From an uncultured Desulfosarcina sp. (GTDB lineage Bacteria > Desulfobacterota > Desulfobacteria > Desulfobacterales > Desulfosarcinaceae): a DNA stretch of 64,000 nucleotides. The DNA lies in contig CAXXWQ010000003.1 in the NCBI GenBank assembly GCA_963674945.2, positions 32,001-96,000 on the forward strand. Direction: 5' to 3'. Position numbers and translations under genes: made by a program. Below are positions 2,952-61,824 of the stretch, in pieces (positions within the stretch are counted from its first letter, which is position 1; the number at the start of each line of letters is the position of its first letter). The notes under the pieces were generated by a model that worked only from the letters and a program-made list of their open reading frames with translations, did not search any database and was not told the DNA's origin.

Positions 2952-2969
2952 TGTTAGATTTTTGTTAGC
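2952..2969 (-). promoter_or_regulatory. 11-bp-period direct repeat (CTAACA x2), Pho-box-like, upstream of ppk1
   Basis: TGTTAG at 2952 and 2963. Confidence 0.6.
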
Positions 2970-3053
2970 ACAAAAACATTTACAATCCGGAATTGTAATA
3001 GCGATGATGGTAAAGTGCTTTATCGTTCGGGACAATTGTGGTACGAGCGATTC

Positions 3054-3520
3054 ATGGAAACAATAATGTTACATCAACGGAAAAGACGCCGACAGTGGAT
3101 CGTTTTGGTATCCCCATTTCTCATCACATGGCCCTGGATAATTACGGCGGTGATTGCCGGCCGCCACCTACCCTGTGATGAGACCTACTATTATCGTAAT
3201 GTCACCGGCGAAAACGTCTCGAAAATCAAATGGGAGCTAAAAAAGCAGATGGTTTCACCCTCAACTACCAAACGCCGACGTCGCAATATGTGACCACTAC
3301 CGACGCCGATTTTGACACCCGATGCTGGCGGGTCGCCGATGAAGGCAAAGACATATTCCTGCGGGCCGAACGCGTAGCGGAGGACATCGTTATTAAAGGC
3401 TGACATCGAGGAAATACCATAGACAAATCTTTGGCCATCGACCCGAATCCATGGTATCAGGCCACGTCACTCTCCTTGCGGAAATTCATCGCATCCGAAG
3501 ATTCCGATAAACCTCAGAAA
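3054..3520 (+). pseudogene. Decayed exported hypothetical protein
   Basis: Three segments join into one protein-like sequence (...KWELKK/ADGFTLNYQTP...IVIKG*HRGNTIDKSLAIDPNPWYQATSLSLRKF). They are separated by a frameshift in the A6 run at 3239-3244 and an in-frame TGA at 3401. Confidence 0.6.
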
Positions 3521-3525
3521 ACGGA

Positions 3526-3648
3526 TCAAGCCGCCTTTTTCAAAGCCTTTTTCAGTTTCTTGATTTTTCCTTGTTGCTTGGCAACGATGGCCTTTCTGGT
3601 TTTCATCTCTTTTTTAATGGATTTTGCTTTCTTCGATACTTTTGCCAT
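3526..3648 (-). CDS. 40-aa extremely lysine-rich small protein
   Basis: Below the ORF-track cutoff. AGGAG RBS, then ATG at 3648: MAKVSKKAKSIKKEMKTRKAIVAKQQGKIKKLKKALKKAA*. Confidence 0.75.
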   Translation of the reverse strand: MAKVSKKAKSIKKEMKTRKAIVAKQQGKIKKLKKALKKAA

Positions 3649-3675
3649 TTTTTTTCTCCTTTCACGGCTTCTTGG

Positions 3676-3861
3676 TCAAACTTCCTTTTTTTTCTCGTGC
3701 ATTTTTAAAAACTGCCCGATGAACTTGCGTATTTCCCGGGCAGCACTGGTGTCCAACTCCTCACAAAGTTTGACGAACCGATCCCTTTCTTCGCCACTGA
3801 TGCGAATTAAAAGCTGACTGTCCTTTTTATTTTTTTTCTTGGATGATTTTTTCTTTGCCAT
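3676..3861 (-). CDS. Small basic protein, probable ribbon-helix-helix DNA-binding fold
   Basis: A strand-helix-helix pattern (SQLLIRIS-GEERDRFVKLCEELD-TSAAREIRKFIGQFL) follows a Lys-rich N-terminus. Confidence 0.7.
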   Translation of the reverse strand: MAKKKSSKKKNKKDSQLLIRISGEERDRFVKLCEELDTSAAREIRKFIGQFLKMHEKKKEV

Positions 3862-4095: not shown

Positions 4096-4124
4096 CCTAA
4101 CATAAACCTAACACTATCCTAACA
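4096..4124 (+). promoter_or_regulatory. Three perfect CCTAACA repeats at 11-bp period (Pho-box-like)
   Basis: CCTAACA at 4096, 4107 and 4118. Confidence 0.7.
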
Positions 4125-4384
4125 TATAGAACATAGTTTACGCGTCAATAACAATTGATTCGACAAATAGGATCCCCCCTCTTTTGCAGGGTGAAACACC
4201 TTCTGTAATAAAACGACAAACGACAATAGGAAACGCCAAATGATCTCAAACAATTGCAGTATTGAAGTAAGGGTCAAATAAACCCCATCTTCACATAGCC
4301 CAGATATTATGACATCATAGGCTTGGCAATGAAAATGTGTATGGGAGACGATTGTGAACCGGCCGGTAGAAAGTAAGAGAAGAA

Positions 4385-5980
4385 TCAATAGCGAAGGATC
4401 GCCAGCGTCTGTTTGTCGATATTTTTTGGCAAAAGCGCCAGATGGTCCTCCCGCGTCCTGGCCAGCGGAAGTTTGGCGAACAGGTATCGAAGATAGGCAT
4501 AGGGTTCCAGCCCATTGGCTTTGGCCGTTTCGATCAAACCGAAGAAGGTGGCGCTGGCTTCCGCACCCCGGGGCGCGCCGGAAAACAGCCAGTTCTTGCG
4601 ACCCAACACGAATGGCCGGATGACATTTTCAGCCACATTGTTGTCGGGCTTCAGAAATCCGGCATTGATATAGACAACCAGTTTGTCCCATTGGTTTAGG
4701 CAATATTGGATCGCTTTGCCGAGAAGGCTTTTCGGAGGAGCTTGCCAATGGTAGGTGTCCAGCCAGGTTTTAAATTGTTTCAGAATCGGCTTGGCCTTTT
4801 CCTGTCGCAGGTCACGGATCTGTTCATACGACAAATCCTTGTCTCGCGCATACCGTTCTATGCCATACAATGCGCCAATGTAATCCAGCGCCTCGTCGGC
4901 AAGCCCCTTGGCTGCTTTTTGTTTGCCGCGCGCCTTGCGCCCTTTGTTCACCTCGACAAATTTACGTCGGGCATGGGTCAGGCAACCTAAATGGATGATC
5001 CCTTGCTTTTGGGACAGCTGATCATAGCCGCTGTAGCCGTCGCTTTGAACATAGCCCGAATAGTCTTCTATCATATCTTGCACTACCTTCCCACTACGGG
5101 TGGGATGATACTGGTAAAGCACCACAGGGGCATCCAACGGGCCGCCACAAAACACCCACATATACGATTTTGTTGTATTGCTGCGGCCCGGTTCCTGAAG
5201 CACCTGAAACGGACTTTCATCGATATTGATCACAGGACCGCTTCGAATCTCCTGATGCATCAATTCGACGATCGGCTGGCAGCAACCGGCGGCCTGAATC
5301 ATCCAATTGGCCATGGTTGACCGTGAGATGTCAACGCCCAGACGGTCAAATATCTTTTGTTGGCGATGCAGGGGAAGCGCATCGGCGAATTTTGAGACAG
5401 CGATGTGGGCCAGCAGTCCCTCAGTGGCGTTGCTCTTGGGAATCAGTTGTTCTGGCGGCGGAGCGATCCTAACGGTGGGGCCGTCATCCTCGACGCCTTC
5501 GCAGGCCTTGCAGGCGTATTTGGGGCGGATGTGACGGATCACCTGGATTTTTGCCGGGATATAATCGAGCTTCTCACAGGTCTCTTCGCCGATACGGCTC
5601 AGTTCAACTCCGCAAGCACACCGTTTCTCGGCCTCAGGGATATCGTGCAGGACCTCGACGCGGGGCAGATCCTCAGGCAACGGTTTGCGGCCACGCTTTT
5701 TGCGGGTGTGCTCCGGGACGGTGATGTCGTCATCGGCAAGGACGGGCTCTGCGGTTTCGTCGGGTTTGAACAACTGGAGTTGGTTGGGATTGACGGCCGG
5801 CAAAACTTCACTTTTGCGACCGAACAGCTCGTTCTTCAGCAGACGTACCATTTCTTGCAGATGGTCGATTTGCTGCTGCTGAGAAGAGATAATCTCCTTA
5901 AGCGATTGGGCGTCATCGGGCAGGTTGTTCGATTCCGAAAGCATGCCTGATACATAGCATAACCAATTGAATTTGTACAC
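4385..5980 (-). CDS. tnpC: IS66 DDE transposase
   Basis: LFGRKSE, Zn-ribbon CACG/CKAC, DES, SDGYSGY, CLTHARRKF, DNNVAEN.IRP, GRKNWLF and LIETAKANG motifs. Confidence 0.96.
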   Translation of the reverse strand: MYKFNWLCYVSGMLSESNNLPDDAQSLKEIISSQQQQIDHLQEMVRLLKNELFGRKSEVLPAVNPNQLQLFKPDETAEPVLADDDITVPEHTRKKRGRKPLPEDLPRVEVLHDIPEAEKRCACGVELSRIGEETCEKLDYIPAKIQVIRHIRPKYACKACEGVEDDGPTVRIAPPPEQLIPKSNATEGLLAHIAVSKFADALPLHRQQKIFDRLGVDISRSTMANWMIQAAGCCQPIVELMHQEIRSGPVINIDESPFQVLQEPGRSNTTKSYMWVFCGGPLDAPVVLYQYHPTRSGKVVQDMIEDYSGYVQSDGYSGYDQLSQKQGIIHLGCLTHARRKFVEVNKGRKARGKQKAAKGLADEALDYIGALYGIERYARDKDLSYEQIRDLRQEKAKPILKQFKTWLDTYHWQAPPKSLLGKAIQYCLNQWDKLVVYINAGFLKPDNNVAENVIRPFVLGRKNWLFSGAPRGAEASATFFGLIETAKANGLEPYAYLRYLFAKLPLARTREDHLALLPKNIDKQTLAILRY

Positions 5981-6007
5981 ACTTATTTTACTTCCAGGTG
6001 GATGTTC

Positions 6008-6355
6008 TCAGCTTGCATAACGGTAGTTTAAACGCACATGAGCATTCGTATAATCCAGTCCGGCGAGAAGCCATTCCAGTTCTTTCGCACTAAGGGAAAC
6101 GACTTCTTTTGTGGTTGTTGGCCAGTGGAAACGGTGCTTCTCCAGCCGTTTGAGCCAGAGAGCAAATCCATTTTTATCCCAGTATAAAATTTTTATCATG
6201 TTCCGACGCCGATTGCAGAAGACGAACAGGTCCCCTTCGAAGGGATTCAAATCCATGGCCTGTTCCACCAAAACCGAAAGCCCGTTGATCGATTTGCGCA
6301 TATCGGTATTACCCACGGCCAGAAAGACCCTTTTGGGATTGGTGGGCAACATCAT
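6008..6355 (-). CDS. tnpB: IS66 accessory protein TnpB
   Basis: TDMRKSINGL, FVFCNRRR, KILYWD and KRLE motifs. Confidence 0.95.
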   Translation of the reverse strand: MMLPTNPKRVFLAVGNTDMRKSINGLSVLVEQAMDLNPFEGDLFVFCNRRRNMIKILYWDKNGFALWLKRLEKHRFHWPTTTKEVVSLSAKELEWLLAGLDYTNAHVRLNYRYAS

Positions 6356-6681
6356 AATGTAGCCACCATTGCAACAAGCTTGTTGATTTCTATCGATCCG
6401 TTTTGATCATCGACTTCGATGGTAAATCCGTTGGGGGTATGAATACGAACGGATGGATGTTTCCTCGTCGCTGATCCGTTGAGCGCAACCGGCAAAAAAG
6501 TAACTCGGGTTTTATCAACGGGCATGATGCGCCGTTTCCAATCGTAAAACCGATGGAGAATGAGATCGTTTTTTTTACAATAGGCCCTTTGGCTTAGGCT
6601 GCTGATCTTCCATTTCTCGATATGATTTTCCCAAAATTTTCGCCTTTGCTTGGAATCGAATGAATCATAGTCTTCAGGCAT
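6352..6681 (-). CDS. tnpA: IS66 accessory protein TnpA
   Basis: W..HI..W..S.LSQ..YC...L....FY.W pattern. First ORF of the IS. Confidence 0.9.
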   Translation of the reverse strand: MPEDYDSFDSKQRRKFWENHIEKWKISSLSQRAYCKKNDLILHRFYDWKRRIMPVDKTRVTFLPVALNGSATRKHPSVRIHTPNGFTIEVDDQNGSIEINKLVAMVATL

Positions 6682-7088
6682 GATATCTTCTCCTTTCTTT
6701 GGGGAAACACATTGCCATGCCTGAACAATTTTGTGAAGATGGGGTTAATAAACCGCTTACGTATTGAAGAGTTCGTCAAGGCCGTGCAGGGAAAAGATAC
6801 ATATGAGGTGATCAACCTGGCTGTTCAGGAGGCCACCGAAGTCGACCGCATTGTGATGAAAAAACGAAAGAAGTCCAAAATTGACAATTTTCAGAATTAT
6901 TCACGCCAATTGAAGCAACTCATCAGCTACCATCGATATATTATCAAACCCCGCCGAGGGATGAAAACAACTTACAACCTCTATATGCAATATTGGGGAA
7001 CCGCGGATCTGTCGACGGATCATCACCAATGTAAACCGTCAATGGATACAACGAAACAAGTAGCCTAAAAAATAAAATAAGCACTTCA

Positions 7089-7642: not shown

Positions 7643-8047
7643 TTAAATTTCATTTTTCTCCGATTTTTTCTGCAGCCAGTCTTTGGCAAGGTCCACATCT
7701 CTGAAAACTTGATATTCATCTGGTAGGTTATTCATTTTCATTATGGCGGCAAAAAAATTCAGCAATCCGATGTTAATGGTTTTAGAACCGACCAGGGCCA
7801 CCTTTCGAACCTTTCCATCTGTTGAGACTGCCCCAATACTGGAAGAAATATCGTTCATATCGGCTATGGATATATCAATTTTAGAAGCCTTAGAAAAATC
7901 CCATAAGGAGTTATCCGGTTTCTTACCCGGCAAGTATTTGTTTGCCTGAACCAAAATATCCTCTGCGTTTAATGCTCCGATCACTTTGAAAATTGTATAC
8001 TTTTCCTGCTTTTTGACTGAAATCATAACCCGCTGACTCTCCATCAA
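7643..8047 (-). CDS. SpoIIAA/STAS-like hypothetical protein
   Basis: LWDFS, RKVALV and FRDVDLAKDWL pattern. Confidence 0.7.
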   Translation of the reverse strand: MMESQRVMISVKKQEKYTIFKVIGALNAEDILVQANKYLPGKKPDNSLWDFSKASKIDISIADMNDISSSIGAVSTDGKVRKVALVGSKTINIGLLNFFAAIMKMNNLPDEYQVFRDVDLAKDWLQKKSEKNEI

Positions 8048-8268
8048 TTCGAATAAGCGACGTTTGTGGTATCGGTTGCAACACGATATTCTATCACATC
8101 TCGATATTTATGAAGGTATTGCTGTGCACATTGCTCACAATACTTTCTGGGGACGCCACGTCCGGTAAAATAAAAACGGTACCAGTGCCGCTTTTGACAA
8201 ATGGGGCAGATACATTCGGTTGGTTTGCTACGGCTGAGAACGGTTGCCATCTTATTTGATCTCCTCAA
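8044..8268 (-). CDS. Small CxxC/CxxC zinc-finger-like hypothetical protein (likely start at 8250)
   Basis: CICPICQKRH...FTGRGVPRKYCEQC. GAGGAG lies upstream of MATVL. Confidence 0.65.
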   Translation of the reverse strand: MRRSNKMATVLSRSKPTECICPICQKRHWYRFYFTGRGVPRKYCEQCAQQYLHKYRDVIEYRVATDTTNVAYSN

Positions 8269-8306: not shown

Positions 8307-8324
8307 TATTAGTTTTTGGTTAGG
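8307..8324 (-). promoter_or_regulatory. Degenerate 11-bp-period box pair
   Basis: TATTAGT at 8307 and GGTTAGG at 8318. Confidence 0.4.
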
Positions 8325-9279: not shown

Positions 9280-10398
9280 TCATTTTTCCATCCAATACAT
9301 CGATCTTTCGACGACCTGGATCAAAGCCTCCATATCTGCGGAAAAAACGTCGCCGATATTGCCGATACGAAACGTATCGAGATCCGTGACCTTGCCCGGA
9401 TAAATGACAAAGCCCTGCTTCTTCAAGTTGCGATAGAACTCCTTGAACGTGTAATCGGGATGCACCGGGCTGTGAAAGGCCGTGATGATGGGAGATTGCC
9501 ACCGTTCATCCAGCAGGGGGGAGAACCCGAGTTTCTTCATGCCCCGAACCAGCCGCCTGTGGTTGCCGACATATCGTTCATAGCGGGCTGCAATTCCACC
9601 TTCCTCCGCCAGTTCTTCCAAGGCCTGTGCAAAGGCTCTCACCGCATGGGTCGGAGAAGTAAAACGCCATTTTCCCTCATGATGCTCCATGGTTTCCCAT
9701 TGATCGTAAAGATCCAGGCTGAGTGACCCGGCATTTCCCCGGGTTTTTGCAAGGAGCGCCCGATTGGCGATGACGAACCCGAATCCGGGAACCCCCTGGA
9801 TGCATTTATTGGCGCTGCTGATGACAAAATCCGCGCCAATCCGATGCATATCCATGGGAATGCCCCCGAAGCTGCTCATTGCGTCCACGATATACCGTTT
9901 TCCATGGGAGCGTACGATACGGCCGATCTCTTCCACGGGATTAAGCATTCCCGTTGTGGTTTCACAATGGACCACCGCCACATGGGTGATGTCCGTTTCT
10001 GTCGTGAGAGTTTTCTCGAGCCGTTCCAAATCCGGCGGATCGGTTTCTCCGTTGTCATGGATCAGCAAGGGGATGCTGGCCCGCTTGGCGATCTGGGCGA
10101 TTCTCCTGCCGTAGGCACCATTGGCCAACACCAGCAGCTTTCCGGTTTTGGGCACGGCAGTGATGATGGTGGATTCCACGCTGAAGGTGCCGCTTCCCTG
10201 CATCAACACGGCAGTATAGCCGTTATGATCCGTTGCCAGTCGTACCAATTGGTTTCGGATGCGCTGAACGATCCGGCTGTAATCCTCATCCCAGGTGCAC
10301 CAGTCTCTCATCATCACACTTTTTACGGTTTTGGTGGTGGTGAGAGGGCCGGGGGTAAGCAGGATATATGGATTTTCAGGAAGGTTATCGGTTTTCAT
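9280..10398 (-). CDS. phnW: 2-aminoethylphosphonate-pyruvate transaminase
   Basis: [43 protein letters not shown] and GFVIYPGK motifs. Confidence 0.96.
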
Positions 10399-10465
10399 TT
10401 GTTTCTCTCCACGGAAAAGCGGTCAGCCTATCGCTAACGGATAGTCTCTCATATTTGGTTCTCTT

Positions 10466-11872
10466 CTAATCATTTGTTGTTTTGCTACGCCTGATGTTTT
10501 CCTTCTCACTTAGAATTGCTGTCTCGAGGATGTCCAACGCCCGTTCCATCTCCGCATCCGAAATGGTCAGGGCCGGCGTCAGAGTTAGGAAATTACCGCC
10601 GGAAACTTTAAAGCTCAGGCCCCTTTCAAGACAGGCATACATGATCCTTTCCGCCTCGAGGACCGCCGGTTGACCGTCGTTTGCCAGTGCAACGCCGAAA
10701 AGCAGCCCCCGACCGCGGATGTCGTCCACCAGCGAATACGTTCCAAGATTGCTTCGCAAACGCTTTCGCGCGATCTCTCCCAACACTTCGGAACGTCTGA
10801 CCAGTTGATGTTCCTCGATATATTCGATAGCGGCCAGGCCGGCGGCACAGGCGACCGGATTTTTCTCATGGGTGTAATGACCCAGGGCGATCTTCCTGCC
10901 GACATTCAACTCTTCCCGCGCAACGATCGCCGCCAGGGGGAACACGCCACCGCCCAACCCTTTGCCCATGATCAGGATATCCGGAATTACATCCTCATGC
11001 TCACAGGCGAACATTTTACCGGTCCTGCCCAGGCAGACGGCGGTTTCGTCGAAAATCAACAGGGCACCGTACCGGTCACAGGCCCGGCGCACCGCTTGCC
11101 AGTATCCCTCAGGAGGTGGATTCACCCTGGTGCAGCGGATCGGCTCGGCAATCACTGCGGCGATATCGCCCTCTTTTTCCATGACGTATTCGACATAACG
11201 GGCGCATTTCAGCCCGCAGGCATCGCAGTTGCCCGACGGGTCCCATAGACAATTGCGTGGATCGGCCGGGGGGACATGCTCCGTGCCGGGCAAAAGCGGG
11301 CCGATGCCTTTTCGAAAAAGGGCTTCGCCGCCCACGGAAATGGCATCCAACGATGCGCCGTGAAAAGCGTCCCACATGGAGATGGTTTTAAACCGACCGG
11401 TGGCCACTCGGGCCAGTTTCAAAGCCATGCCCACCGCACTGGTGCCGCCGGGGGCAAACAGCACGCGGTTCAGATCGCCGGGAGCAATCCGGACCAGCTT
11501 TTCCGCCAGCCGGATGGCCGGCACATTGGTATAGCGGCGGGGGCAGAAAGGAAGGGTTTCCACCTGCCGCCGAACGGCATCCAATACCGCCGGATTGGCA
11601 TGGCCGGCCTGGTGGAGGCTGTTGCCATGAAAATCCAGGAACCGTTCCCCCGAAAAGTCCGTAAAACCACCGTCCAAACAGCCGGACAACACATCCAGGC
11701 AGGGCGTGGAAAGGGATTGGTGCAAGAATACATCGGCATCCCGTCGAAGCCAGTGGCGGGTTTCCTGATCCAGCCTGTTGGTCCACTTTTGCCTTAACGC
11801 AGAAAGGTTCGCGTCGCCTTCGGACAGGTCCACCGGCGTTGATTCCGGCGATGGTGGTTGGGAAGTATTCAT
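10466..11872 (-). CDS. pbfA: Class III PLP enzyme, probable (R)-1-hydroxy-2-aminoethylphosphonate ammonia-lyase
   Basis: FLHQSLSTPCL, DFHGN, FDE, GKGLGGG and GHYTHEKNP motifs. Located between phnX and phnW. Confidence 0.85.
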   Translation of the reverse strand: MNTSQPPSPESTPVDLSEGDANLSALRQKWTNRLDQETRHWLRRDADVFLHQSLSTPCLDVLSGCLDGGFTDFSGERFLDFHGNSLHQAGHANPAVLDAVRRQVETLPFCPRRYTNVPAIRLAEKLVRIAPGDLNRVLFAPGGTSAVGMALKLARVATGRFKTISMWDAFHGASLDAISVGGEALFRKGIGPLLPGTEHVPPADPRNCLWDPSGNCDACGLKCARYVEYVMEKEGDIAAVIAEPIRCTRVNPPPEGYWQAVRRACDRYGALLIFDETAVCLGRTGKMFACEHEDVIPDILIMGKGLGGGVFPLAAIVAREELNVGRKIALGHYTHEKNPVACAAGLAAIEYIEEHQLVRRSEVLGEIARKRLRSNLGTYSLVDDIRGRGLLFGVALANDGQPAVLEAERIMYACLERGLSFKVSGGNFLTLTPALTISDAEMERALDILETAILSEKENIRRSKTTND

Positions 11873-11890
11873 GCGAATTCTTTTTGCCGA

Positions 11891-12727
11891 TTAAATGGGC
11901 CTTTCGCCGTTTGCCAGGCGCCGGTTGATCTTTTCGATGAGGGGAAGACATTCCCAGATGCCCCTTGCCGTGTAATGAACACCGGTTTGTCGAAAACGTT
12001 TTTCGATGTCCGCCAGTTTTCGATTCAACTCCGCTTCCGGCAGGGATTGCACCTTTTTTCGTGTCAGTCCCAGTTCATTGCCGGACTGGGTCAGGCCGAT
12101 GGTCCACATGCCCGCGTTCAACCCCTCCTGGATGTCGCTGATGGTATCGCCGATTTTCACCAGGGCCGACATGGGGTAGACACCCAACTCAATGGCGTTC
12201 AGGTAACACATCCAGGGATAGGGGCGGCCGTTGGGCACATCGGTGGAACATTTCACGGCATCCGGCGAATAGCCCTTCTGCCTTGCCAAGGGTGCCAGCA
12301 CCGCCATCATCGGAGTCGTGTACCCGGTGCAGGAGCCAATTTTCATCTCCAGCCTTCTCATCTCTTCCACGGCTTCCAGAAGTCCGGGAATCAGGTCCGC
12401 ATGACGACAGATGGCCGAAACCATCATGGGTTCGGTCTCCTCATAAAGACCCGCCACATCATTCTCATCCGGATTCTTTCCGTGAACCTCCTTCCACCGC
12501 TGCCGGATACGCGGAAGATCCAACATACCCCGGATATGATCCTTTTTCATCAGTCCCATGAATTGGCGGGCCTCATGTATGGTGACGTTGATGCGAAATT
12601 TCTCAAATACGTCGACGAAAACGGCCGCCGGACCCAAACAGCCATAGTCGACAGCCGTGCCCGCCCAGTCTAAAATGGCCCCCTTCAACGGACCTGTATA
12701 GGACGATGTCGGAATGATTTGTTTCAT
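11891..12727 (-). CDS. phnX: Phosphonoacetaldehyde hydrolase (phosphonatase)
   Basis: DWAGT..DYG, MGL.KKDHI, GRPYPWM and KIGDT.SDI.EG.NAG motifs. RBS precedes the ATG at 12727. Confidence 0.95.
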   Translation of the reverse strand: MKQIIPTSSYTGPLKGAILDWAGTAVDYGCLGPAAVFVDVFEKFRINVTIHEARQFMGLMKKDHIRGMLDLPRIRQRWKEVHGKNPDENDVAGLYEETEPMMVSAICRHADLIPGLLEAVEEMRRLEMKIGSCTGYTTPMMAVLAPLARQKGYSPDAVKCSTDVPNGRPYPWMCYLNAIELGVYPMSALVKIGDTISDIQEGLNAGMWTIGLTQSGNELGLTRKKVQSLPEAELNRKLADIEKRFRQTGVHYTARGIWECLPLIEKINRRLANGERPI

Positions 12728-12744
12728 TTTCCTGTCCTTTTCTG

Positions 12745-15617: not shown

Positions 15618-15645
15618 ATTTCACCTTTTCCATTCTGGATGGGTA

Positions 15646-16680: not shown

Positions 16681-16708
16681 CGGTGATTCTCCTTGTTTGT
16701 GATTGATT

Positions 16709-17652: not shown

Positions 17653-17796
17653 TCGATCTCTTTCGGGAATCGCTAAGGAGTTTTTTCTTTGTCGCACGCA
17701 AACCGGTACGTTACCGTATAATTGTGCGTGAGTGGTAAGGCCCGCCTGCGGGTGATCGCATCCCCTGACCCTCGATGCTTACAATAGCATTCTTTT

Positions 17797-17836
17797 TGTG
17801 AGTTTTTTGTTAGAAACAGGTGAGTTTATGATTAGT
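17797..17836 (-). promoter_or_regulatory. Four 11-bp-period boxes upstream of the lysR-phn operon
   Basis: TGTGAGT at 17797, TGTTAGA at 17808, GGTGAGT at 17819 and GATTAGT at 17830. Confidence 0.6.
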
Positions 17837-45480: not shown

Positions 45481-45481
45481 T

Positions 45482-47975: not shown

Positions 47976-47999
47976 TAAACAGAATAGACAATACAGCCC

Positions 48000-49322: not shown

Positions 49323-49362
49323 CGGAACTGTCCCAACTTCATTGACAGACAGCGGTAGGCCA

Positions 49363-50427: not shown

Positions 50428-50454
50428 TTTGGTAAAACACCTAAGAGTCGGTGC

Positions 50455-51960: not shown

Positions 51961-53682
51961 TCACGGTTGATGCATCAACACATAAATAAAACAACCTCGC
52001 CTTCCAACTGCATTTTCGTCACCAGACAAACCCGAATCCTTTCCTGTACCGTCACCGTCGATCTCTTTCGGCAGGTCGCCTTTCACCACGGCGTTCGGAT
52101 CATGGGTGACGGCAACAACGACATCGTCCGTATCGGTGGCACCCAGACTGTCCGTGACGCGAAGCTGAAATATCATCGACGTGCCTTCCGCCAGATCGGG
52201 AATGGTAATCTCGGTGACAGGATTGTGCGGATTGCCGATTGTGACGACGGGTCCTTCCAACTGCTTCCATTGATAGGCGGCAATGGAAGCGCCGTCCGGA
52301 TCGATCCCGGCACCCGCCAGCGTTCCAATACTTCCCGAAAGAGCTACCTGATCGCCTCCGGCATTTGCCGTCGGCGCGGTGTTGAGCGGCTCGATTCCGG
52401 TGATGGCCACCTGTGAGGTACGATCCCATAGATACGACCCCGTGCTGAAGGCGTTGGTGGTATCGTAGTATCCATCATAGGATCCGGATTGACCGAAATT
52501 GATGTGGATCTTATCCGTCGGACCTTTCTGGTAACCATCCACGACGGTCTCATGCCCGCCGGAATAATCCGCAAGAAAGATCGAAAGGATCACCGGTCTC
52601 GGAGGATCCGCATCCAGTTCGGATGTAAACAGCGAAAACCATTGGTCGGAGGTATAATTGGAACGATGGTGCTCTTCCATGGAGGGGGTATACCGAAAAT
52701 AGACGTCGAGAATATCATCGGCAAACGCAGCGCTGCTGGAAGCCTTGCATCCGTAAGCCATGTTTGTGGCAATCCCCATATCCGATATCAGCTGCGCCAC
52801 TGCCTCGATTTCCGATGTGCCGGACCGGCTGTCCAATGCCCTCGGCATGAGATCCCACTGGTACGCATGGGAAAAATTGGCGCTCAGCGTGATCGTCGAA
52901 CCGTTTGACGCCTGCCACGAATAGGAATGAGAACCGGTTCCTTTGGGCGGCCAGTTCCAATAGGCGGCAAGTTGTGCAAATGCCGTGGCGACACAGCCGG
53001 TCAATGTGTGCGCACAGCCACCATCTGCGGGAGTGAAAGAATTATAGGGATCGAATTGTCCCCAGGAGGTCATGAGAACCGGCCCGACCGACTCCATATT
53101 TTCACCCGATACGGACTGGCTGCCGGTGAAATCGTCGGCACCCGAAGAAAAGTCAACAGGATCCGTTTCGGAATACAATCTCCATGCCCCCGCAATCCTT
53201 TTCCTTGAATCTGTCGATGCAGCGGTTTGCAGATCGAGTTGGATTTCCCCATCATCGTTTCCGGCATCGGCGATATTCTCGAAAATCTCACGTGCGATCC
53301 ATGATTCGAGGGAGCCTATGATTTCAATGCGATCCTCTTGAAAATCGGATGTCTCCGAATAAAGAAGAACCGGACTGCTGCCGAAATGACCCGCGATCAA
53401 AACATGCCCTGCCGGTGAAACCTCAAAATTGAATGCAATGCGTTTTCCACCAAAAATGATTTCATTTCCTTCGATAATTTCGGCGGCAGCGGAATTTCCC
53501 CATTTGCCGTAGTGCGATACGTGGTATCGGACAGTATTTTCTGCGACGACCCTTGCCAGCTCTTCGCTTACGACCTCACCATGGCAAGGTGCAACGAAAA
53601 CAGTGACAATGATCCATCCATAAAGCCAATACAAACCGAATTTCCATCCAGAAACAGGAAAATTTAATATAGAACGAATCAC
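51961..53682 (-). CDS. C10 (streptopain-like) cysteine peptidase with a PKD-like domain and a CFI C-terminus
   Basis: WGQ..PYN, TGCVATA, GH..VVDGY and HINFG motifs. APTANAGGDQ starts an Ig-like domain. The protein ends GRRGCFIYVLMHQP. Confidence 0.88.
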   Translation of the reverse strand: MIRSILNFPVSGWKFGLYWLYGWIIVTVFVAPCHGEVVSEELARVVAENTVRYHVSHYGKWGNSAAAEIIEGNEIIFGGKRIAFNFEVSPAGHVLIAGHFGSSPVLLYSETSDFQEDRIEIIGSLESWIAREIFENIADAGNDDGEIQLDLQTAASTDSRKRIAGAWRLYSETDPVDFSSGADDFTGSQSVSGENMESVGPVLMTSWGQFDPYNSFTPADGGCAHTLTGCVATAFAQLAAYWNWPPKGTGSHSYSWQASNGSTITLSANFSHAYQWDLMPRALDSRSGTSEIEAVAQLISDMGIATNMAYGCKASSSAAFADDILDVYFRYTPSMEEHHRSNYTSDQWFSLFTSELDADPPRPVILSIFLADYSGGHETVVDGYQKGPTDKIHINFGQSGSYDGYYDTTNAFSTGSYLWDRTSQVAITGIEPLNTAPTANAGGDQVALSGSIGTLAGAGIDPDGASIAAYQWKQLEGPVVTIGNPHNPVTEITIPDLAEGTSMIFQLRVTDSLGATDTDDVVVAVTHDPNAVVKGDLPKEIDGDGTGKDSGLSGDENAVGRRGCFIYVLMHQP

Positions 53683-53895: not shown

Positions 53896-53924
53896 TGTTA
53901 GGGTTTGATTATGGATCGGTTAGG
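53896..53924 (-). promoter_or_regulatory. 11-bp-period box triplet upstream of the C10 peptidase gene
   Basis: TGTTAGG at 53896, GATTATG at 53907 and GGTTAGG at 53918. Confidence 0.55.
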
Positions 53925-54140: not shown

Positions 54141-56255
54141 TTAGCTTTTGGATTCCATTTTCTGTAACATGGATTCTGCATGATCCCGGCCCATAAACGG
54201 TGTATCGCCGCTGGTCGCGGTTTTCAGCTTTTCGATGGCCCCTTTTGTGTCCCCGGCCTTTTTCAAAACCATTCCCATGTGGTAGTTAACGACAGGATCT
54301 TCGGGAGCGGCTGTGATCAGTTGCTCATACAATTGAAGTGCCTGCTCGGTATCGCCTTTTTTGTAGTGAATCCATCCGAAGGTATCGATGATGGACGCCT
54401 GACCCGGTTTCATGCGATACGCGGCGGCGGCGATCTTCTCGGCCCTGTCCAACGGTGCCGAGGAAGAGGCCTGATCCGCCAGCAAGAATGCCAGACGGTT
54501 TGCGGCGCCCCAGAATCCGGGCACCTGCTTTATTCCTTTTTCGTAAATATCGATCGCCGCGTCATACTTGGATTTCTCCTCGTACAGCCGCCCCAGTGCC
54601 ATATAAGCCGTGGAATTTTTCGGGTTCCAGTCCAACGCCGCCTCGAAATGTTTGATGGCCTGGTCCTTTTTGTTTTGCAGCAGGAAGAGTGCGGCAAGAT
54701 TGTTGCTCGGCTCGGGCCACATTGGATCGATCTCGGCCGCCTTTTCGAATTCCTTTTGCGCGGCTATGTATTTCTTCATTTTGGTGGAAACCACACCCTT
54801 CAGATTATGGGCAAAGGCCTCTTGGGGAATTTTTTCCAACCTCTCGTCACACATGGCCAGGGCTTGGTCGTAGTGTTCATCGGCAAGTAAAAGGGATGCA
54901 AGCTGGGTGGTAATTGCCTGATTGTTCTCGACTATCGCGATTCCTTTTTTCAATTGCGCGATAGCTTTCTCCTTATCCCCCTGCCGTAAATAGAGTCTCG
55001 CCAGCCGGCTGTAACCGAGATCGGACTGAGGAACCTTCAGCAAGATCTCGCTGTACTCCCGCCGCGCTGCGTCTTCATCATTGAGCAGGAGATAAAAATC
55101 CCCCAGCTGTGCCTGCGCGGCGATGGCTTTGGGATTTTTCTCCACGATCTTTCGAAGATGGGTCTCGGCCCTCTTATAATCTTTGGTGGCGAGGCTGACG
55201 CGAACCATGGCCATATGCAGATCGGCATTTTCCGGGGCCACGGCCAATCCTCGCAGCACTGTCTCCTTTGCTTGCTCCGCCTGCCGATTTCGGGTGTAGG
55301 CATCGGCAAGGAGAAGATATACGTCCGGGTCTTCGGGCCTTACTCCCAGGATCCGCTGAAAATCGACCACGGCCCCATTTGCATCGCCGGAAGCCGCCAA
55401 CGCCTTTCCCCGCGTGACCAATGCCGGAATGTTGTCGGGGTCCATATCCAATACCTCTTGTGCGTATTTTTTCACTGCCGGATAGTCCCTTGCCGTCAAA
55501 TGGATTCCCGCCAGGGCGTTTGTGAGGTCGATTCGTCCGCCTTCGGTCGGATTGGCATCATGCGACAACCCTTTTTGCATTAGCTCCACGGCCTCTTGGG
55601 CTTTTTCGGTTTTCAGATACAATTCCCCCAAGGCAAGACGAAGCGTTGCATCGCTATCCTTGGAATCGAGTCCCTGCCGCAAGATTTTCTCGGCACGTTC
55701 GATTTTCTTTTGCTCCAGATAAAAATTGGCTACGGCGATTCGCCTCATCGCATCCACCGGATCATCTTCTATGACATGTTCCAGAATTTCATCTGCTTCA
55801 GCCCCCCTTTTCTGGGCAATCAGCGCAGAGGCTTGGATCAACGCGGCATCCCGGTTCGCCGGATCATGCTCATGAACAGCCTTTGCCAGTGTCATCGCCT
55901 CTGCCGGCCGGCCGGCGGTCAGGAACATCCGTCCTAATGCAAGTTGGGATTTGACATGGGTTGGATCGGCGGAGACCGCCTTGGCAAAATATGCCGCGGC
56001 GCTCTTTGCATCTTTTTCAAATTGGGCCATACGCCCCAACAAAAAGTAGGCATCTGCATAGTCGGGATATCTTTCGATGGCTTGATTCAGGTATTCCTTC
56101 GCTTTTTCATAATCGGTTGCATCGAACGCCGCCTGTCCTCTTTTGAAATATTTTCGCGACTTTCGGCCCGGCCCGTCGGCCGCCACGGCAGACAGCGCCA
56201 AAATCGTTGCAATGACAAGGAGTATAATAATCGTGACGGTTCTTTTTTTATTCAT
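54141..56255 (-). CDS. Second long TPR protein (PrsT-like paralog, Sec signal, no lipobox)
   Basis: TPR array. C-terminal AANRLAFLL...DTFGWIHYK...VNYHMG parallels ORF 27520-29943. Confidence 0.87.
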   Translation of the reverse strand: MNKKRTVTIIILLVIATILALSAVAADGPGRKSRKYFKRGQAAFDATDYEKAKEYLNQAIERYPDYADAYFLLGRMAQFEKDAKSAAAYFAKAVSADPTHVKSQLALGRMFLTAGRPAEAMTLAKAVHEHDPANRDAALIQASALIAQKRGAEADEILEHVIEDDPVDAMRRIAVANFYLEQKKIERAEKILRQGLDSKDSDATLRLALGELYLKTEKAQEAVELMQKGLSHDANPTEGGRIDLTNALAGIHLTARDYPAVKKYAQEVLDMDPDNIPALVTRGKALAASGDANGAVVDFQRILGVRPEDPDVYLLLADAYTRNRQAEQAKETVLRGLAVAPENADLHMAMVRVSLATKDYKRAETHLRKIVEKNPKAIAAQAQLGDFYLLLNDEDAARREYSEILLKVPQSDLGYSRLARLYLRQGDKEKAIAQLKKGIAIVENNQAITTQLASLLLADEHYDQALAMCDERLEKIPQEAFAHNLKGVVSTKMKKYIAAQKEFEKAAEIDPMWPEPSNNLAALFLLQNKKDQAIKHFEAALDWNPKNSTAYMALGRLYEEKSKYDAAIDIYEKGIKQVPGFWGAANRLAFLLADQASSSAPLDRAEKIAAAAYRMKPGQASIIDTFGWIHYKKGDTEQALQLYEQLITAAPEDPVVNYHMGMVLKKAGDTKGAIEKLKTATSGDTPFMGRDHAESMLQKMESKS

Positions 56256-56284
56256 TTTTCCTCGGTTTCATTATTCCGCAATTG

Positions 56285-56980
56285 TCAGTCCCGAATCACC
56301 TGTTCATCGATCTGGTCCAGGTACTCCTGAACGATTTTTTCCAGTTCCACCTTCTTGATCTGTGTGAACGGCTCCACGCTGAGAAGTGATTTTGAAAACG
56401 CGCCATCTTCATCGTATCGAGCGAGGATGGATTGCGCCGTTGCGGCCATTTTTTGGTTGTGTTTCAGGTATCGTTCCCGGGTTCGTTGGGAGAATTGAAG
56501 TTCCGATGTAAGCTCGGCGACATTATCATTCAACGTGATAATTGTATCATCCCGTTCGGCGATGGTTTTCCTCGCCTGAAGGTATTCCTCCGTCAATTCA
56601 CCGTGCTTTTTCTTCCAATTCCCAATTGTTCGTTTCAAGTCATCGATACGTGCTTCCAGGGCCTTTGCCTCCTCCTTCACTTCACTCTTGGCCGCCTTCA
56701 GCGCCGCCAACTCTTCGGCCAGCGCCTCCGCCTTCATCTCCGCCTGACGCTTCAACCCCTCCACCGTCAGCTTTGCCCGTTGCATTGCCGCGGTCTGGGC
56801 TTTCTGGGCGGTGTACTTCTGATGGAGCAGTTTGGCCCGGTGCTCCATATTCTCGAGTTCCTTGGTCTGGGCCGTATGCGCCTCGTTGAGGGAATAGAGG
56901 CTGTATCCGAGATATCCGATGAATAGGATCAGAAGCGTAAGTCCGGCGATGAAAATCTTTTTTTTTCTAGAATCGGGCAT
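56285..56980 (-). CDS. Membrane-anchored coiled-coil protein of the TonB/porin cluster
   Basis: N-terminal TM, a long heptad region and a C-terminal EPFTQIKKVELE..VQEY.D segment. Confidence 0.75.
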   Translation of the reverse strand: MPDSRKKKIFIAGLTLLILFIGYLGYSLYSLNEAHTAQTKELENMEHRAKLLHQKYTAQKAQTAAMQRAKLTVEGLKRQAEMKAEALAEELAALKAAKSEVKEEAKALEARIDDLKRTIGNWKKKHGELTEEYLQARKTIAERDDTIITLNDNVAELTSELQFSQRTRERYLKHNQKMAATAQSILARYDEDGAFSKSLLSVEPFTQIKKVELEKIVQEYLDQIDEQVIRD

Positions 56981-58553
56981 TTATATCCACCTGTAACGTA
57001 TCCACTCCCAATTGGGGGCCTTCGATCTCATCGGAAGAGAGCCATCGTGTGGTCAACCAGACATTTCGATAGAGGCCGTACTCGAATTTCAAGATCCAGC
57101 CCTTTGCGTTGGTTCCGCCCAAATGAAAATCGGAGTCGGTAAAGGCGTCGAGGACCGCATCCGCCCCAAGATGTTTGTATTTGATACCGGCATTCCATTC
57201 CCCCTGGTTGAAGATTTTCGGATAACCGATGGTGGCGCCCGTCATGTAACCGTCCGTATCCTCTACGGGATCTTCGTTGCCCGTGACGAGGGCCACCCGA
57301 TCGCTGTCGAAACCCAAATTCTTCACGTACTGCCCCTCGAGAACGATCTGAACCGGATAGAAAATCCCGAAATCGGCCGTCAGGTAAACGTCAAGAATAT
57401 TGTAATCCGTTGCCAGGGCGGTTGTAATGGAGGATGTTGGATCGATGTCCATGAGAGTATTTCCCTTTTGCTGGAACAAAGGGGCGGTATAGTCGTTGAG
57501 TCCGGGTCGGGTCGGGTCGTTCTGTATTCCTTCGATCCGTTGGTAATCATAATATGCGGTTGCCAATGCAAAGGTCATGTCGTAGCGGGGTTGGAAGGTG
57601 AAGCCGATTTGTGCCCCCCAAAACCACTTGTCCCGACTGGTGAACGCTTCTTCCTGTAAAGGAAAAATACCGGCGGTAGCGAACATATTCAATGGCCGCA
57701 TCTGTTCCGTGTCTGTCTCGTAGCCAATCGCGGCACCTTCGAAATTCAAGTCGGAATCCCACACCAGATCCGAAGAGAACCAGGGATTGGCAAACCTGCC
57801 ACCGGTGATGCTCACCCGGGGCATGCGCTTCCATTTGGGGTTGATGGGTTGCCAACTATACTTGAGATAGGCGCGATCGAAGACGAAGCTGTCCCGGTTT
57901 AAATAGTCCCCCATGGTCTCATTGGTAGAAACCGGATCCTTTTCGTTGCCGGTGGTAAAGCGGAACCCCGCCTCCATCTTGCCGACGTTTACATCCCTGA
58001 AGTCGAGGAGTTTGGCCTTCATTCCAATTCGGGCCCGGTAGCGATAACGGTGGCGATCTTCGGTGGAATTGAGCAGCTCTTCCGGGTCATCCGGCCGGAC
58101 GAAAATCGCGTTTCCTTCGGCAAAATTATCCCCCTGGTACCGCAACCGCACATCACCGCTGATTTTGATCCGCTGGGCCCATTCGGATTTGACGGATCGT
58201 TCGAGAAGGGTATTGAGCGGACCTTCTTCCATGTCGTCCACGCGCCGTTGCAAGAGTCGATGGTCGGCCATCATGGCTTCTTGGACCCGATTGGGTCGGC
58301 TCTCCAGGCTGCGAAGTTCTTCCTTGGTGGACGGCTCCGCCACCTCCACCCCTTCGGCCTCCGAAGCCATCTGTTGGAGCAGGCCGAGTGCTTCCGTTTC
58401 GGTGATGATCCCTTTTGCCTTGAGCAGTTGGATAATCGCCCGGGTTTGACTGTCGGGCAGGTAATCGGGAGTTTCCTCGGCCCAAGGGATGGAAGGAAAC
58501 AAAAAAATGATGAGAGAAAAGAAAAAAAAACATGCTGCAATGGGTCTTGTCAT
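56967..58553 (-). CDS. Putative porin (Porin_5-like) with an N-terminal coiled coil
   Basis: GDVRLRY, PVSTN.T, DAFTDSDFHLGGTN and a C-terminal QVDINARF. Confidence 0.85.
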   Translation of the reverse strand: MTRPIAACFFFFSLIIFLFPSIPWAEETPDYLPDSQTRAIIQLLKAKGIITETEALGLLQQMASEAEGVEVAEPSTKEELRSLESRPNRVQEAMMADHRLLQRRVDDMEEGPLNTLLERSVKSEWAQRIKISGDVRLRYQGDNFAEGNAIFVRPDDPEELLNSTEDRHRYRYRARIGMKAKLLDFRDVNVGKMEAGFRFTTGNEKDPVSTNETMGDYLNRDSFVFDRAYLKYSWQPINPKWKRMPRVSITGGRFANPWFSSDLVWDSDLNFEGAAIGYETDTEQMRPLNMFATAGIFPLQEEAFTSRDKWFWGAQIGFTFQPRYDMTFALATAYYDYQRIEGIQNDPTRPGLNDYTAPLFQQKGNTLMDIDPTSSITTALATDYNILDVYLTADFGIFYPVQIVLEGQYVKNLGFDSDRVALVTGNEDPVEDTDGYMTGATIGYPKIFNQGEWNAGIKYKHLGADAVLDAFTDSDFHLGGTNAKGWILKFEYGLYRNVWLTTRWLSSDEIEGPQLGVDTLQVDINARF

Positions 58554-58593
58554 GAATGAACTCCTGATAGCACTTCCACAATGCGGTAAAAGA

Positions 58594-59286
58594 TTATCCC
58601 TTGGCGGAAATTTTAAGCTTGATAACCCTGGGCATTCCCCGGGGTGGCGGCTCGCTGATTTCCGCTAAATTCAGAGCTTTCAGTACGGCATCATCCAACT
58701 TGGGATCTCCGGATGATCGGGCAAGATTGAAATCTACAATCTTTCCCAATTCATCCAGCTCGATTTGAACCAGTGCCTTCAGGTTTCCATCGGGAATGCC
58801 ACCGTTCTGCTCCATGAGGCGATTCATTCGCTTTCGGAGCTCATCTTGAATAATGCGTGTATACCAGGCATAGCGCCGCATGATAGATGCATCGCTGGCT
58901 GATCCGCCGATGAGGGCGCGCCCCCCCCTGTTCGCCTTCAGGCCAAAGGCATCCGAACCGGCGGTACCTTCGGCGTCCAGCCCCAAGTCCTCTCCCGGTG
59001 GCGGCTCGTCCGACTGATCCTCTGCCTGATCCGGTGGCGTCTCCTCCGGCTCCTGCTCGATGATCTCCTCCTTCTTCACCTCCGGTTCGGGTGGTTTTTC
59101 TTTTATTTTTGGCGGCGGCGGCGGTTTGACCACCGTAACCATTTGAATCCTTCGCTTTCTTCTCTTGGCATCATCTTGAAGCAAGAATTTGACGGCAAAC
59201 ACGGCCCCGGCAATGAAAAGAACGGCGACACAGGCGCCCACCGCACCATAGAGGATTTTCGTGTTTGGTTTCTTTTTCTCTGACAT
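58594..59286 (-). CDS. tonB: TonB-family energy transducer
   Basis: TM anchor, Pro/Glu-rich linker (KPPPPPKIKEKPPEPE) and a C-terminal domain (RSSGDPKLDDAV). Confidence 0.85.
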   Translation of the reverse strand: MSEKKKPNTKILYGAVGACVAVLFIAGAVFAVKFLLQDDAKRRKRRIQMVTVVKPPPPPKIKEKPPEPEVKKEEIIEQEPEETPPDQAEDQSDEPPPGEDLGLDAEGTAGSDAFGLKANRGGRALIGGSASDASIMRRYAWYTRIIQDELRKRMNRLMEQNGGIPDGNLKALVQIELDELGKIVDFNLARSSGDPKLDDAVLKALNLAEISEPPPRGMPRVIKLKISAKG

Positions 59287-59426
59287 GCCCGTATTTTCCC
59301 CGTTAAATGATTGTTCGGTATTTTCATCCAATCTACCGTCGGTCACCGATTACACGAAGATTATTTGAAATATGTTAGGAAAATAAATCAGGGTCGTTTG
59401 GAATATCGTATGGGGAATGAACTATC

Positions 59427-59834
59427 TTATTTCACAAGCTTTTGGGTAACCAACCCCATCTGGGTAATCTCCAGCGTCTGCATCAGGTCCAGCACTTCCA
59501 CCACACGTTCGTAGTAGATCTTGGCGTCCCCTTTGATCACCACGGGAAAATCGGGATCCACGGCCTTGTACTGCCGCAGGCGGCTCTCCAGCTCGGCGAT
59601 GGTCACCGGATATGCGTCCAGGTAAAGCTGGCCGTTGCCGTGGATTGTAATGGCCTTGGTCTTTGGCTTTACCAGGCTGGGCGTATTGCTGGCCTTGGGC
59701 AGGTTGACCTTGATTCCCTGGACCGATGCGGTGACGGCGATGATGAACACCACCAGAAGCGTCCAGGCCAGGTCCAGAAGCGGTGTGACGTTAATCTCGT
59801 CGTAGCCTTGCAGATCGAACAGATCCCGTCTCAT
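59427..59834 (-). CDS. exbD: ExbD/TolR biopolymer transport protein
   Basis: INVTPLLDL..LLVVFII, VNLPKA and IKGD motifs. Confidence 0.93.
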   Translation of the reverse strand: MRRDLFDLQGYDEINVTPLLDLAWTLLVVFIIAVTASVQGIKVNLPKASNTPSLVKPKTKAITIHGNGQLYLDAYPVTIAELESRLRQYKAVDPDFPVVIKGDAKIYYERVVEVLDLMQTLEITQMGLVTQKLVK

Positions 59835-59840
59835 GATCGC

Positions 59841-61712
59841 CTATTCCTCTTTCTCTTCAGCTTTTTTCGGCGCTACCGTTTTTTTTGCCTTTCCGCCGTA
59901 ACGCCACGGTTTTTGGAGCTTCAGGTGATTCTCCCCGTTTCCGTTTTCGACCTTCAAGGCGAATTCATCCACGAAGACCGTCAAATCGGCACAGATCTCC
60001 TTGATATGGGAGGTGAGAAAATTGTATGCGAAAAGAGCGGGAATGGCCACGATGAGCCCCACAACCGTGGTGGAGAGCGCCGAGGCCACACCTGGCGCGA
60101 TGGCCATGATGTTGGCCTCTCCGGCCTCGGCCATGGCGGCAAAGGTGTTCATGACCCCCCACACGGTTCCCAGCAGTCCCAGAAAGGGTCCGCCGGAAAT
60201 GGCCATGGTCAATACGGTCAGGTTGCTGTTGAGCCGCTTCGTCTCATGGATATAATTTTTCTCCAGTTCCGTGCGCAGGGTCTTTAAAGTCTGTGGTAAC
60301 AGGTGTGCCGAGAAACGATCCGCCTCGCCCTTGCCTTCGCTGCCGCCATTGATCACCGTGCACCCGGCCTGGTGAACGCTGTATAGGCAGGAATTTTTCA
60401 TTTCTTCCCCATCGATTTCAACGGCCACCGGATTTTCCGCAGATTCAAACGCGGAGAGGAAAGCCTCGTTTTCCTTCCTCGAACGGACGAGGAAGATGGC
60501 CTTTCTGACAAACACCACCCAACTGGCCACGGAGAGGATCATCAGCAAGATGATGACCATCAGACCGTCCAGAGTGATATTCTTAAGAATAGTGCCCAGG
60601 TAAAATACGGGCATGCCGGATCCGCCACCTCCCATGACTTCCTCGCCGAAGGTGAAAAAGGCACCCTCGGGTCCCTGGGTGGCAAAGGCAGCCCGGATCC
60701 GATCACCGGATATGGGCTGACTGAAGACACCCACCTCGTCCAGATCGCCGATATAGCTTTGCCCGCCGCCGATGCCATCACCCACGATCAGGTCGCCGGC
60801 AAGGGAAGGGAGCGAGCCTGTCAGGTTGACCCAGGTCATCTCCATGCCGTCCAGAAAAATCGTCATGCGATTGCCGGGCTGGCAGGTGACGATGATGAGG
60901 TGCCATGATCCCACGGGGAGATCCGTGCTTTTTTCGGTGGTGAAGATCTGTTCTTCGGCCCCTTCCAGGGAGGCATAGATCTTGGTGTCCTCGATGCCCA
61001 CAACCAGCATCCCCGAATCGCTTTTGCGTGAGAAGAGCCAGCCGTCGGACTGGGCGAAATTGATCCGCACCCAGGCGGAAAGGGAGAACCCGTTGGAAAA
61101 ATCGAGTGAGGGGGTTCCGGGAATCACCAGGCGATCGCCGGCACCGTTGAGGGTCGTGCAGTTGCCGATCACGCCGGGAAGACCCTGGCCACCGGAGAAG
61201 ATTTCCACGTGGTTGTTGTTGGCCGTGGCGTCGCTGGGCGATCCCTCCACTTCCCCCAGGTGATAGGCGGCCACCTGGGCGGTGTCGTAGGTCCCCCCCG
61301 GATCCTGTCCACCGATGGCGTTTTCGTTGCCGTAGTACATGTAGATGAAGCCCTGGTCGGTATTGCCGGAAATTCGCGACACTTTGACCCATACCAGGGC
61401 GATCTCGTCCAGGGTGTCGATCTTCTCTATGTGGTGCTTGAGCAAAGTCACGTCGTCCGATGCCACGAAGCGAATATCGCCGCCGTCATCCCTGGCGTTG
61501 GTAAAGTTGAAATTTCCCGAATGGAGACGGATCAGCACCGTCACTTCGCTCAGGTTTTCCTGAATCCCCGCACCCGTTTCCGTCGTGTTGAAACCGATTT
61601 TCTTGCGGTATTGCCAGGCATCGTTCCACCAGGCCTCATCTGCCAGTGATACGCCGGGGGCGAGTATGGACAAGAACAATACCGTCAACATCATCTGCCT
61701 GAAAAAACGCAT
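59841..61712 (-). CDS. exbB: DUF2341 + LamG/concanavalin + ExbB (MotA/TolQ) fusion protein
   Basis: WWNDAWQYRKKI, DGGDIRF and YMYYGN (DUF2341-like), a LamG-like middle region, and ExbB motifs GPFLGLLGTVWG and GLIVAIPA. Confidence 0.88.
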   Translation of the reverse strand: MRFFRQMMLTVLFLSILAPGVSLADEAWWNDAWQYRKKIGFNTTETGAGIQENLSEVTVLIRLHSGNFNFTNARDDGGDIRFVASDDVTLLKHHIEKIDTLDEIALVWVKVSRISGNTDQGFIYMYYGNENAIGGQDPGGTYDTAQVAAYHLGEVEGSPSDATANNNHVEIFSGGQGLPGVIGNCTTLNGAGDRLVIPGTPSLDFSNGFSLSAWVRINFAQSDGWLFSRKSDSGMLVVGIEDTKIYASLEGAEEQIFTTEKSTDLPVGSWHLIIVTCQPGNRMTIFLDGMEMTWVNLTGSLPSLAGDLIVGDGIGGGQSYIGDLDEVGVFSQPISGDRIRAAFATQGPEGAFFTFGEEVMGGGGSGMPVFYLGTILKNITLDGLMVIILLMILSVASWVVFVRKAIFLVRSRKENEAFLSAFESAENPVAVEIDGEEMKNSCLYSVHQAGCTVINGGSEGKGEADRFSAHLLPQTLKTLRTELEKNYIHETKRLNSNLTVLTMAISGGPFLGLLGTVWGVMNTFAAMAEAGEANIMAIAPGVASALSTTVVGLIVAIPALFAYNFLTSHIKEICADLTVFVDEFALKVENGNGENHLKLQKPWRYGGKAKKTVAPKKAEEKEE

Positions 61713-61806
61713 GTTCAATTTCCCTATCCCTATGCAATTGTCCTTGGTACCCGCCGCGCGGGCAATATGAAAACCGGTGACGAAAATCTTCTAGTTAGAC
61801 ACCAAG

Positions 61807-61824
61807 TGTTAATGAATGATTAGG
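61807..61824 (-). promoter_or_regulatory. 11-bp-period box pair upstream of the exbB operon
   Basis: TGTTAAT at 61807 and GATTAGG at 61818. Confidence 0.45.

Follow-up and report, generated by a model that had tools for sequence, protein, structure and literature searches.

In a 64,000-nt stretch of an uncultured Desulfosarcina sp. (assembly GCA_963674945.2, contig CAXXWQ010000003.1, positions 32,001 to 96,000 of the forward strand; hereafter the window, with positions counted from its first base), an NCTAAC(A/C) core recurs with an 11-bp period and fronts nine gene units. From sequence comparisons, this repeat is likely the lineage-specific operator of the PhoB regulator encoded in the pstSCAB-phoU-phoB operon of the same genome. 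It marks phosphate-uptake, polyphosphate, phosphonate and ornithine-lipid genes both here and in related genomes. The regulon gathers in a ~110-kb island, the central part of which is the window. We give a probability of about 0.88 to this overall reading, in which the C-type 11-bp repeat is a predicted PhoB operator marking the phosphate regulon and the island.

A preliminary description of the window had reported tandem CCTAACA-like heptamers, 11 bp apart and reading toward genes. Coordinates, spacing and orientation were all accurate: 21 of 21 heptamers were found in place, spaced 11 bp and each oriented toward the downstream gene. The heptamer itself was only partly right. Its CTAAC(A/C) core holds, and its first base carries almost no information (0.09 bit). 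Searching for CCTAACA literally detects the arrays poorly: only three of the nine window arrays have two or fewer mismatches to it per pair, and genome-wide the pairs with at most one mismatch show no excess at 11 bp (13 vs 17 at 7 and 21 bp). A weight matrix was built from 79 units of the relatives' pstS promoters only, with the window sequence excluded. Among 36 loci inspected in relatives, a pstS match was present at 17, and arrays at 14 of the 17; the three left out of the matrix were two distant pstS inside operons and one partial match. The matrix consensus per unit is a-w-N-CTAAC(a/c)-w-w. With this matrix, 9 of the 34 window intergenic regions scored at least 13, against 0.22 expected from dinucleotide shuffles, confirming the predicted enrichment over shuffled intergenic DNA; none of 200 shuffles attained nine regions, and only 0-1 regions appeared at spacings of 9, 10, 12 or 13 bp. 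The regions recovered are exactly the nine of the preliminary description. We find it hardly credible that the repeats are AT-rich intergenic noise chosen after the fact. The literal heptamer without 11-bp enrichment and the degeneracy of several units, which had been stated from the start, would fit such noise, but the independent matrix, the near-empty wrong spacings, an AT content (0.576) like that of the rest of the genome (0.56) and the conservation of the box across families do not. For the strong sites, shuffle enrichment and conservation in relatives already refute it.

Genome-wide, intergenic pairs scoring at least 18 number 16 at 11 bp and 9 at 22 bp, and never exceed 3 at the remaining spacings between 7 and 23 bp. 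The strongest matches precede pstSCAB-phoU-phoB, olsF, ppx, ppk1, phn, arsC and pit. The expected occurrence upstream of pst/pho genes was thus borne out, with two repeat arrays before the pstS of the pstSCAB-phoU-phoB operon. The second-best site in the genome is the strong box upstream of a radical SAM-glycosyltransferase-olsF operon. Outside the window, strong boxes also lie upstream of a ppx-CHAD-ParA-CYTH-NUDIX set, of a kinase-PleD-GGDEF operon, of a PhoB paralogue and, in reverse orientation, of pit; a further strong array stands at C4:142972, near a subtilase gene. The distribution of matches is far from even: the ~110-kb island, ~1.6% of the genome, holds 16 of the 49 intergenic matches and 9 of the 15 best. 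On C3, the contig that holds the window, 13 of 58 regions between 8 and 121 kb score at least 13, compared to 0.37 expected. At score 18, the rest of the genome has 4 regions vs 0.7 expected (three shuffles; 177 of 3840 regions, longer than 1200 bp, were excluded). Exact-pattern sites cluster in five relatives too (4-11 sites within 100 kb, p 0.0002-0.02). The signal is carried by position and clustering, not by raw pattern counts.

The predicted binder, PhoB (C3:2061896-2062585), directly follows phoU in the pstS-headed operon, in which pstC, pstA, pstB and phoR were named by operon position only. Its recognition helix reads RSVDVQIVGLR vs RTVDVHIRRLR in E. coli PhoB, so that H198, R200 and R201 are replaced, with G204 at the R201 position. 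In E. coli PhoB, R201 is described as bonding a guanine (PMC3973317). We examined 137 loci, at 63 of which phoB is accompanied by a pst or phoU gene. In a Desulfobacterota clade without R201, the C-type pair occurs at 26 of 31 loci and the G-type pair at none, whereas R201 PhoBs go with a G-type pair at 17 of 25 loci and with a C-type pair at none; seven further non-R201 loci have neither, and wrong spacings turned up at no more than two loci per class. The box falls outside the G-type class, defined by a GT(C/A)A core and an R201 helix, with 0/31 clade loci bearing that pair and a glycine, G204, in the place of the arginine. Among the pstS-family promoters of ten further named genomes (8 matched, 16 loci), C-type boxes were confined to those of Desulfocapsa and NaphS2. 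Of the ten full-length regulators of the OmpR type in the Desulfosarcina genome, PhoB alone has the QIVG helix. The match between helix and box is consistent with the structure, although not proof.

Only one of those ten regulators has a box within 500 bp upstream: a PhoB paralogue inside the island (C3:117848-118537), 46% identical to PhoB, which is its closest paralogue. Its location and its box, 80 bp upstream and open to being read as autoregulation, could make it a local regulator that binds the boxes, alone or with PhoB. We regard this as very unlikely: a search of 24 genomes of the genus did not find the paralogue, although many of them have the box before pstS, and in its helix two residues are deleted and others differ, with an Asp of the acidic pocket changed to Ala. 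One close database relative exists, at 71% identity. As sole binder the paralogue was rejected on its altered recognition helix and the failure to find it in the 24 genus genomes. It is more likely a target than a binder.

Like the E. coli Pho box, the box here lies just upstream of a -10-like element. In the relatives' strong arrays, a TA dinucleotide stands 16 bp downstream of where the last heptamer begins in 59 of 105 cases (other offsets, 2-11), and TAnnnT in 42 of 105; these 105 arrays stem from related genomes and are not independent. TA at +16 is present at seven of the nine window sites, all four weak ones included, compared to 6 of 44 outside the island (P ~2e-5). By analogy, the geometry agrees with class II activation in which the -35 element is replaced by the box, as reported for the Pho box of E. 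coli (PMC4971064). Extrapolating from E. coli PhoB, phosphate shortage would lead phosphorylated PhoB to bind head-to-tail, one protomer per 11-bp unit, and the bound protein would stand in for the -35 and recruit sigma70 polymerase to the adjacent -10. The box at pit, which is reversed, would repress that gene. Relative to the (C/T)GT(A/C)A(C/T) boxes found elsewhere, the change from G to C may result from the loss of the arginine that reads the guanine.

The strong sites are very likely functional, as far as sequence can tell, and conservation in related genomes was confirmed: besides the pstS arrays (14/17 loci), it extends to several window genes, whose annotations in the preliminary description hold (ppk1-sixA, IS66, aminoethylphosphonate operon, arsC-like gene, PEP-CTERM/exosortase cluster, C10 peptidase and two-partner secretion (TPS)-ExbB-ExbD-TonB-porin genes). 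A pair at 2952..2969 (minus strand, score 23.2; TA at +16 in TAGTAA, 2942-2937) precedes ppk1 (polyphosphate kinase 1) and a sixA-like histidine phosphatase gene (206..2832, minus), and is kept in 4 of 4 relative loci. Three perfect repeats at 4096..4124 (plus strand, pair score 26.9; -10-like TAGTTT at 4134-4139) front a small gene (4241..7068, plus) for a helical protein of ~95-110 amino acids and no known family, split by IS66. Both the insertion sequence (tnpABC, 4268..6762, minus; 2495 bp, 8-bp target duplication, 11 identical copies in the genome) and the Zn-finger open reading frame (ORF) named alongside it are real. The boxed small gene, of which no second copy was found, is disrupted by IS66, and the end of the element gives an in-frame ATG at 6739; no IS-free allele was seen in contigs from four runs, which drop rare variants. 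The family is boxed in 19 of 20 relative loci (scores 19-26), the one miss being a fragment, and ppx directly follows the family gene in 10 of the 20. The ~95-amino-acid protein had no Pfam family, no Atlas match of at least 0.9 and no Foldseek match at E<=0.001; its AlphaFold model consists of four helices (pLDDT 75) whose best VIA Z, 7.3, falls among generic helical bundles, so that these searches show neither a known nor a new fold.

The Zn-finger-like, Cys-rich ORF (68 amino acids; 8044..8250, minus) is preceded by a pair at 8307..8324 (minus, score 19.9; TACTCA at +16). In its paralogue family, 9 of 29 other loci are boxed and make up a subgroup with the box near -220; the two copies most like that of the window have no box, and the window ORF itself is boxed. 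A four-unit array at 17797..17836 (minus, best pair 19.1) lies before the lysR gene of the aminoethylphosphonate operon lysR-phnS2T2U2-phnX-pbfA-phnW (9280..17697, minus), with TATTGT at +17, and is kept in 2 of 2 relative loci. This lysR (16709-17697, minus) carries a frameshift near 16940, with the same sequence in covering contigs from three runs; the phosphonate operon may thus have lost its substrate-specific regulator. Finally, a perfect pair at 18499..18516 (minus, score 25.5) precedes an arsC-like arsenate reductase gene of the LMWP family (17967..18422, minus; below the NCBIfam cut-off). Six of nine arsC copies in relatives have a sense box scoring at least 12, and the remaining three comprise one within a boxed operon, one with an antisense box and one with none.

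The four weak sites lie before surface genes, and from their sequence are probably functional as internal or strain-specific promoters. One pair (25023..25040, minus, score 14.9; -10-like TACACT at +16) precedes wzz of the PEP-CTERM/exosortase polysaccharide cluster (tviB...xrt, capD, prsT, wza, wzz, wzc; 22202..51774, minus). In several relatives the gap before wzz is filled with short tandem repeats of 7-nt units. A three-unit array at 53896..53924 (minus, pair 14.0, array 26.1; TATACA at +16) precedes a C10-family peptidase gene with a PKD domain (51961..53634, minus) and co-directional polysaccharide genes. The C10 gene was not found among 30 genus genomes, and its second copy here (C4:146611-148308), 99.2% identical, has no box and adjoins the subtilase gene and the strong array at C4:142972; the 53896 array may for this reason serve the polysaccharide genes, with C10 a late arrival. 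The supposed single copy before tonB is actually a degenerate pair, CCTAACA/TCAAATA (59362..59379, minus, score 13.3; TAATCG at +16). The last pair (61807..61824, minus, score 14.6; TAACTA at +16) sits in the tpsA-exbB gap of a module that holds the end of tpsA (DUF3739), DUF2341-exbB, exbD, tonB, Porin_5, coiled-coil and TPR genes (54141..64000, minus) and extends beyond the window.

PhoB might instead bind the strong boxes only, leaving the wzz, C10, exbB and possibly tonB sites as chance or decayed look-alikes; surface genes would then not be direct targets and would be reached, if at all, via a csgD-like regulator. We consider this unlikely, yet it accounts for weak-site scores (13-15) that equal the noise level of the genome, for a C10 gene that is a recent duplicate, and for wzz and exbB sites that are absent in relatives, where the tpsA-exbB gap is merely 0-120 bp. 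It does not account for four weak sites that are all sense-oriented with TA exactly at +16 and have per-region shuffle p values of 0.002-0.018, nor for the tonB pair, a weak counterpart of which (score 11-12), again with TA at +16, is present in three of six relatives, the closest ones.

Coming back to the C-type repeat as PhoB operator throughout the island, several results weigh against it or narrow it. PhoB is the best TIGR02154 match (E 9e-73) with 246 bits, below the cut-off of 296.2. The 31 non-R201 loci form one clade (support 99/91), so that the co-occurrence of helix and box counts as one evolutionary event. No box precedes a second pst operon, and that of phoA is only weak (10.8). 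In this genome arsC lacks a TA at +16 and the phn lysR -10 is one base off. Raw exact-pattern counts in the five relatives are below the reversed-pattern control. Outside the island, 19 of 3605 regions score at least 13, when ~18 are expected (three shuffles); scores of 13-14 are there at chance level, so the case for the weak sites is made by their location and -10 phase. In relatives, the box is missing before wzz at 13 of 13 loci (one with Ns at the site) and before exbB in six of six, and the head of the polysaccharide operon has a sense box in one of six relatives' stretches, some heads possibly lying outside them.

The idea of a single regulon spanning the window is supported, within limits: the boxes of ppk1, phn lysR, arsC and the IS-split family are conserved, and those of wzz (0/13) and exbB (0/6) are specific to this genome. 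The proposed coupling to extracellular polysaccharide and TonB-linked surface genes shows a similar split, as boxes at the TPS operon head, tonB and the csgD-like gene recur, but those of wzz and exbB are not kept and C10 was not found in the 30 genus genomes. As read from promoter sequences, the conserved tie of the predicted operator to the surface module is made of these three recurring promoters. The first gene of the TPS operon is boxed here and in three of four relatives (12.0-17.3). In relatives, the csgD-like gene is boxed in every case (4 of 4), each time with TA at +16, and in this genome it follows the boxed PhoB paralogue. Of 24 genus genomes, five contain DUF2341-ExbB; the csgD-like gene turned up in four of 30, each of which is one of those five. 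At C3:117075-118617, the boxed paralogue is followed by this CsgD/VpsT-like LuxR gene, with a PilZ gene nearby. A PEP-CTERM protein and a 471-amino-acid protein with a PstS-like domain (C3:108279-110446) precede the TPS operon, also in relatives, an arrangement that recalls the phosphatase gene before P. aeruginosa pdtA.

A broader scenario can be offered tentatively, with the odds somewhat against it: loss of R201 would have rewritten the Pho box from G to C across a large clade of sulfate reducers from sediments, and a Desulfosarcina-like PhoB would also start a second-tier surface programme (CsgD/VpsT-like regulator, PilZ, PEP-CTERM polysaccharide, TPS adhesin and TonB motor) and a universally boxed ~95-amino-acid protein, without a known family, that is tied to polyphosphate turnover. 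If the repeat is a PhoB site, several uncharacterised genes and a cell-surface gene module come under phosphate control. The box provides a usable marker for phosphate-starvation genes in important marine-sediment sulfate reducers, and adds as new candidate regulon members the ~95-amino-acid family, the Zn-finger subgroup, arsC, the csgD-like regulator and the PhoB paralogue. The pairing of helix and box also offers a natural single-residue test of a change in OmpR-family DNA specificity.

We compared the system with those already described. The E. coli Pho box is made of two 11-nt units of CTGTCAT (PMC4415409, PMC3973317); both systems have 11-bp direct repeats before pstS and an OmpR-family regulator beside phoU, but the core is CTAAC here and GTCA there. 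In another sulfate reducer, Desulfovibrio vulgaris, the PhoB (DVU1083) box (c/t)GT(n)AC has been validated by electrophoretic mobility shift assay (PMC3333781, PMC6456213). It is likewise a direct repeat before pstS with targets beyond phosphate uptake; it differs, in a comparison made without the DVU1083 helix, by a G-type core and, in the cited accounts, by other extra targets. In Desulfovibrio alaskensis G20, Pst, PhoR and olsF matter under phosphate limitation (PMC5193443), and the olsF operon has the second-best site here; that report is a fitness and lipid study whose main text uses neither 'binding site' nor 'motif'. The surface module resembles the P. aeruginosa PUMA3/sigma-VreI regulon (pdtA, pdtB, exbB2D2, tonB4, PA0696-0701), a cluster reported as phosphate-starvation-induced with PhoB bound at internal promoters (PMC4971064, PMC2729926). 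Judged by gene content and order, not by sequence, both have a TPS pair followed by exbB-exbD-tonB and exported proteins, but the module here is flanked by the csgD-like regulator, the PhoB paralogue and PEP-CTERM genes. No extracytoplasmic function (ECF) sigma factor or vreAIR was present among the called genes scanned in C3:8-130 kb, a region that has several ORFs without family and was given no dedicated search. When five gaps of a homologous module from an Aquabacterium plasmid (25-56% identity) were scanned, no G-type box appeared. Our literature search returned no paper describing a C-type or Desulfobacterales Pho box, with RegPrecise, subscription journals and the supplements of the D. 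vulgaris papers (orthologue-based motifs) outside its scope; the mechanism of PhoB is known, and searchable papers appear not to describe the box, its link with the helix or several of the members.

Some minor observations complete the picture. The polysaccharide cluster contains a VapBC-like toxin-antitoxin pair (35434-36061, plus), with VapC assigned by hidden Markov model and its upstream partner by position. A weak three-unit array (array score 18.2) at C4:1100819, between a dnaA-like gene and uvrA, could be chance. Four genes at C3:8906-14000 (804-amino-acid ORF, PSD-like, LGT-like and DUF2062) have a weak three-unit array upstream (best pair 11.0). Two relatives, G023 and G009, have several boxed operons of unannotated genes, among them a second pst operon of G023 that ends in arsC.

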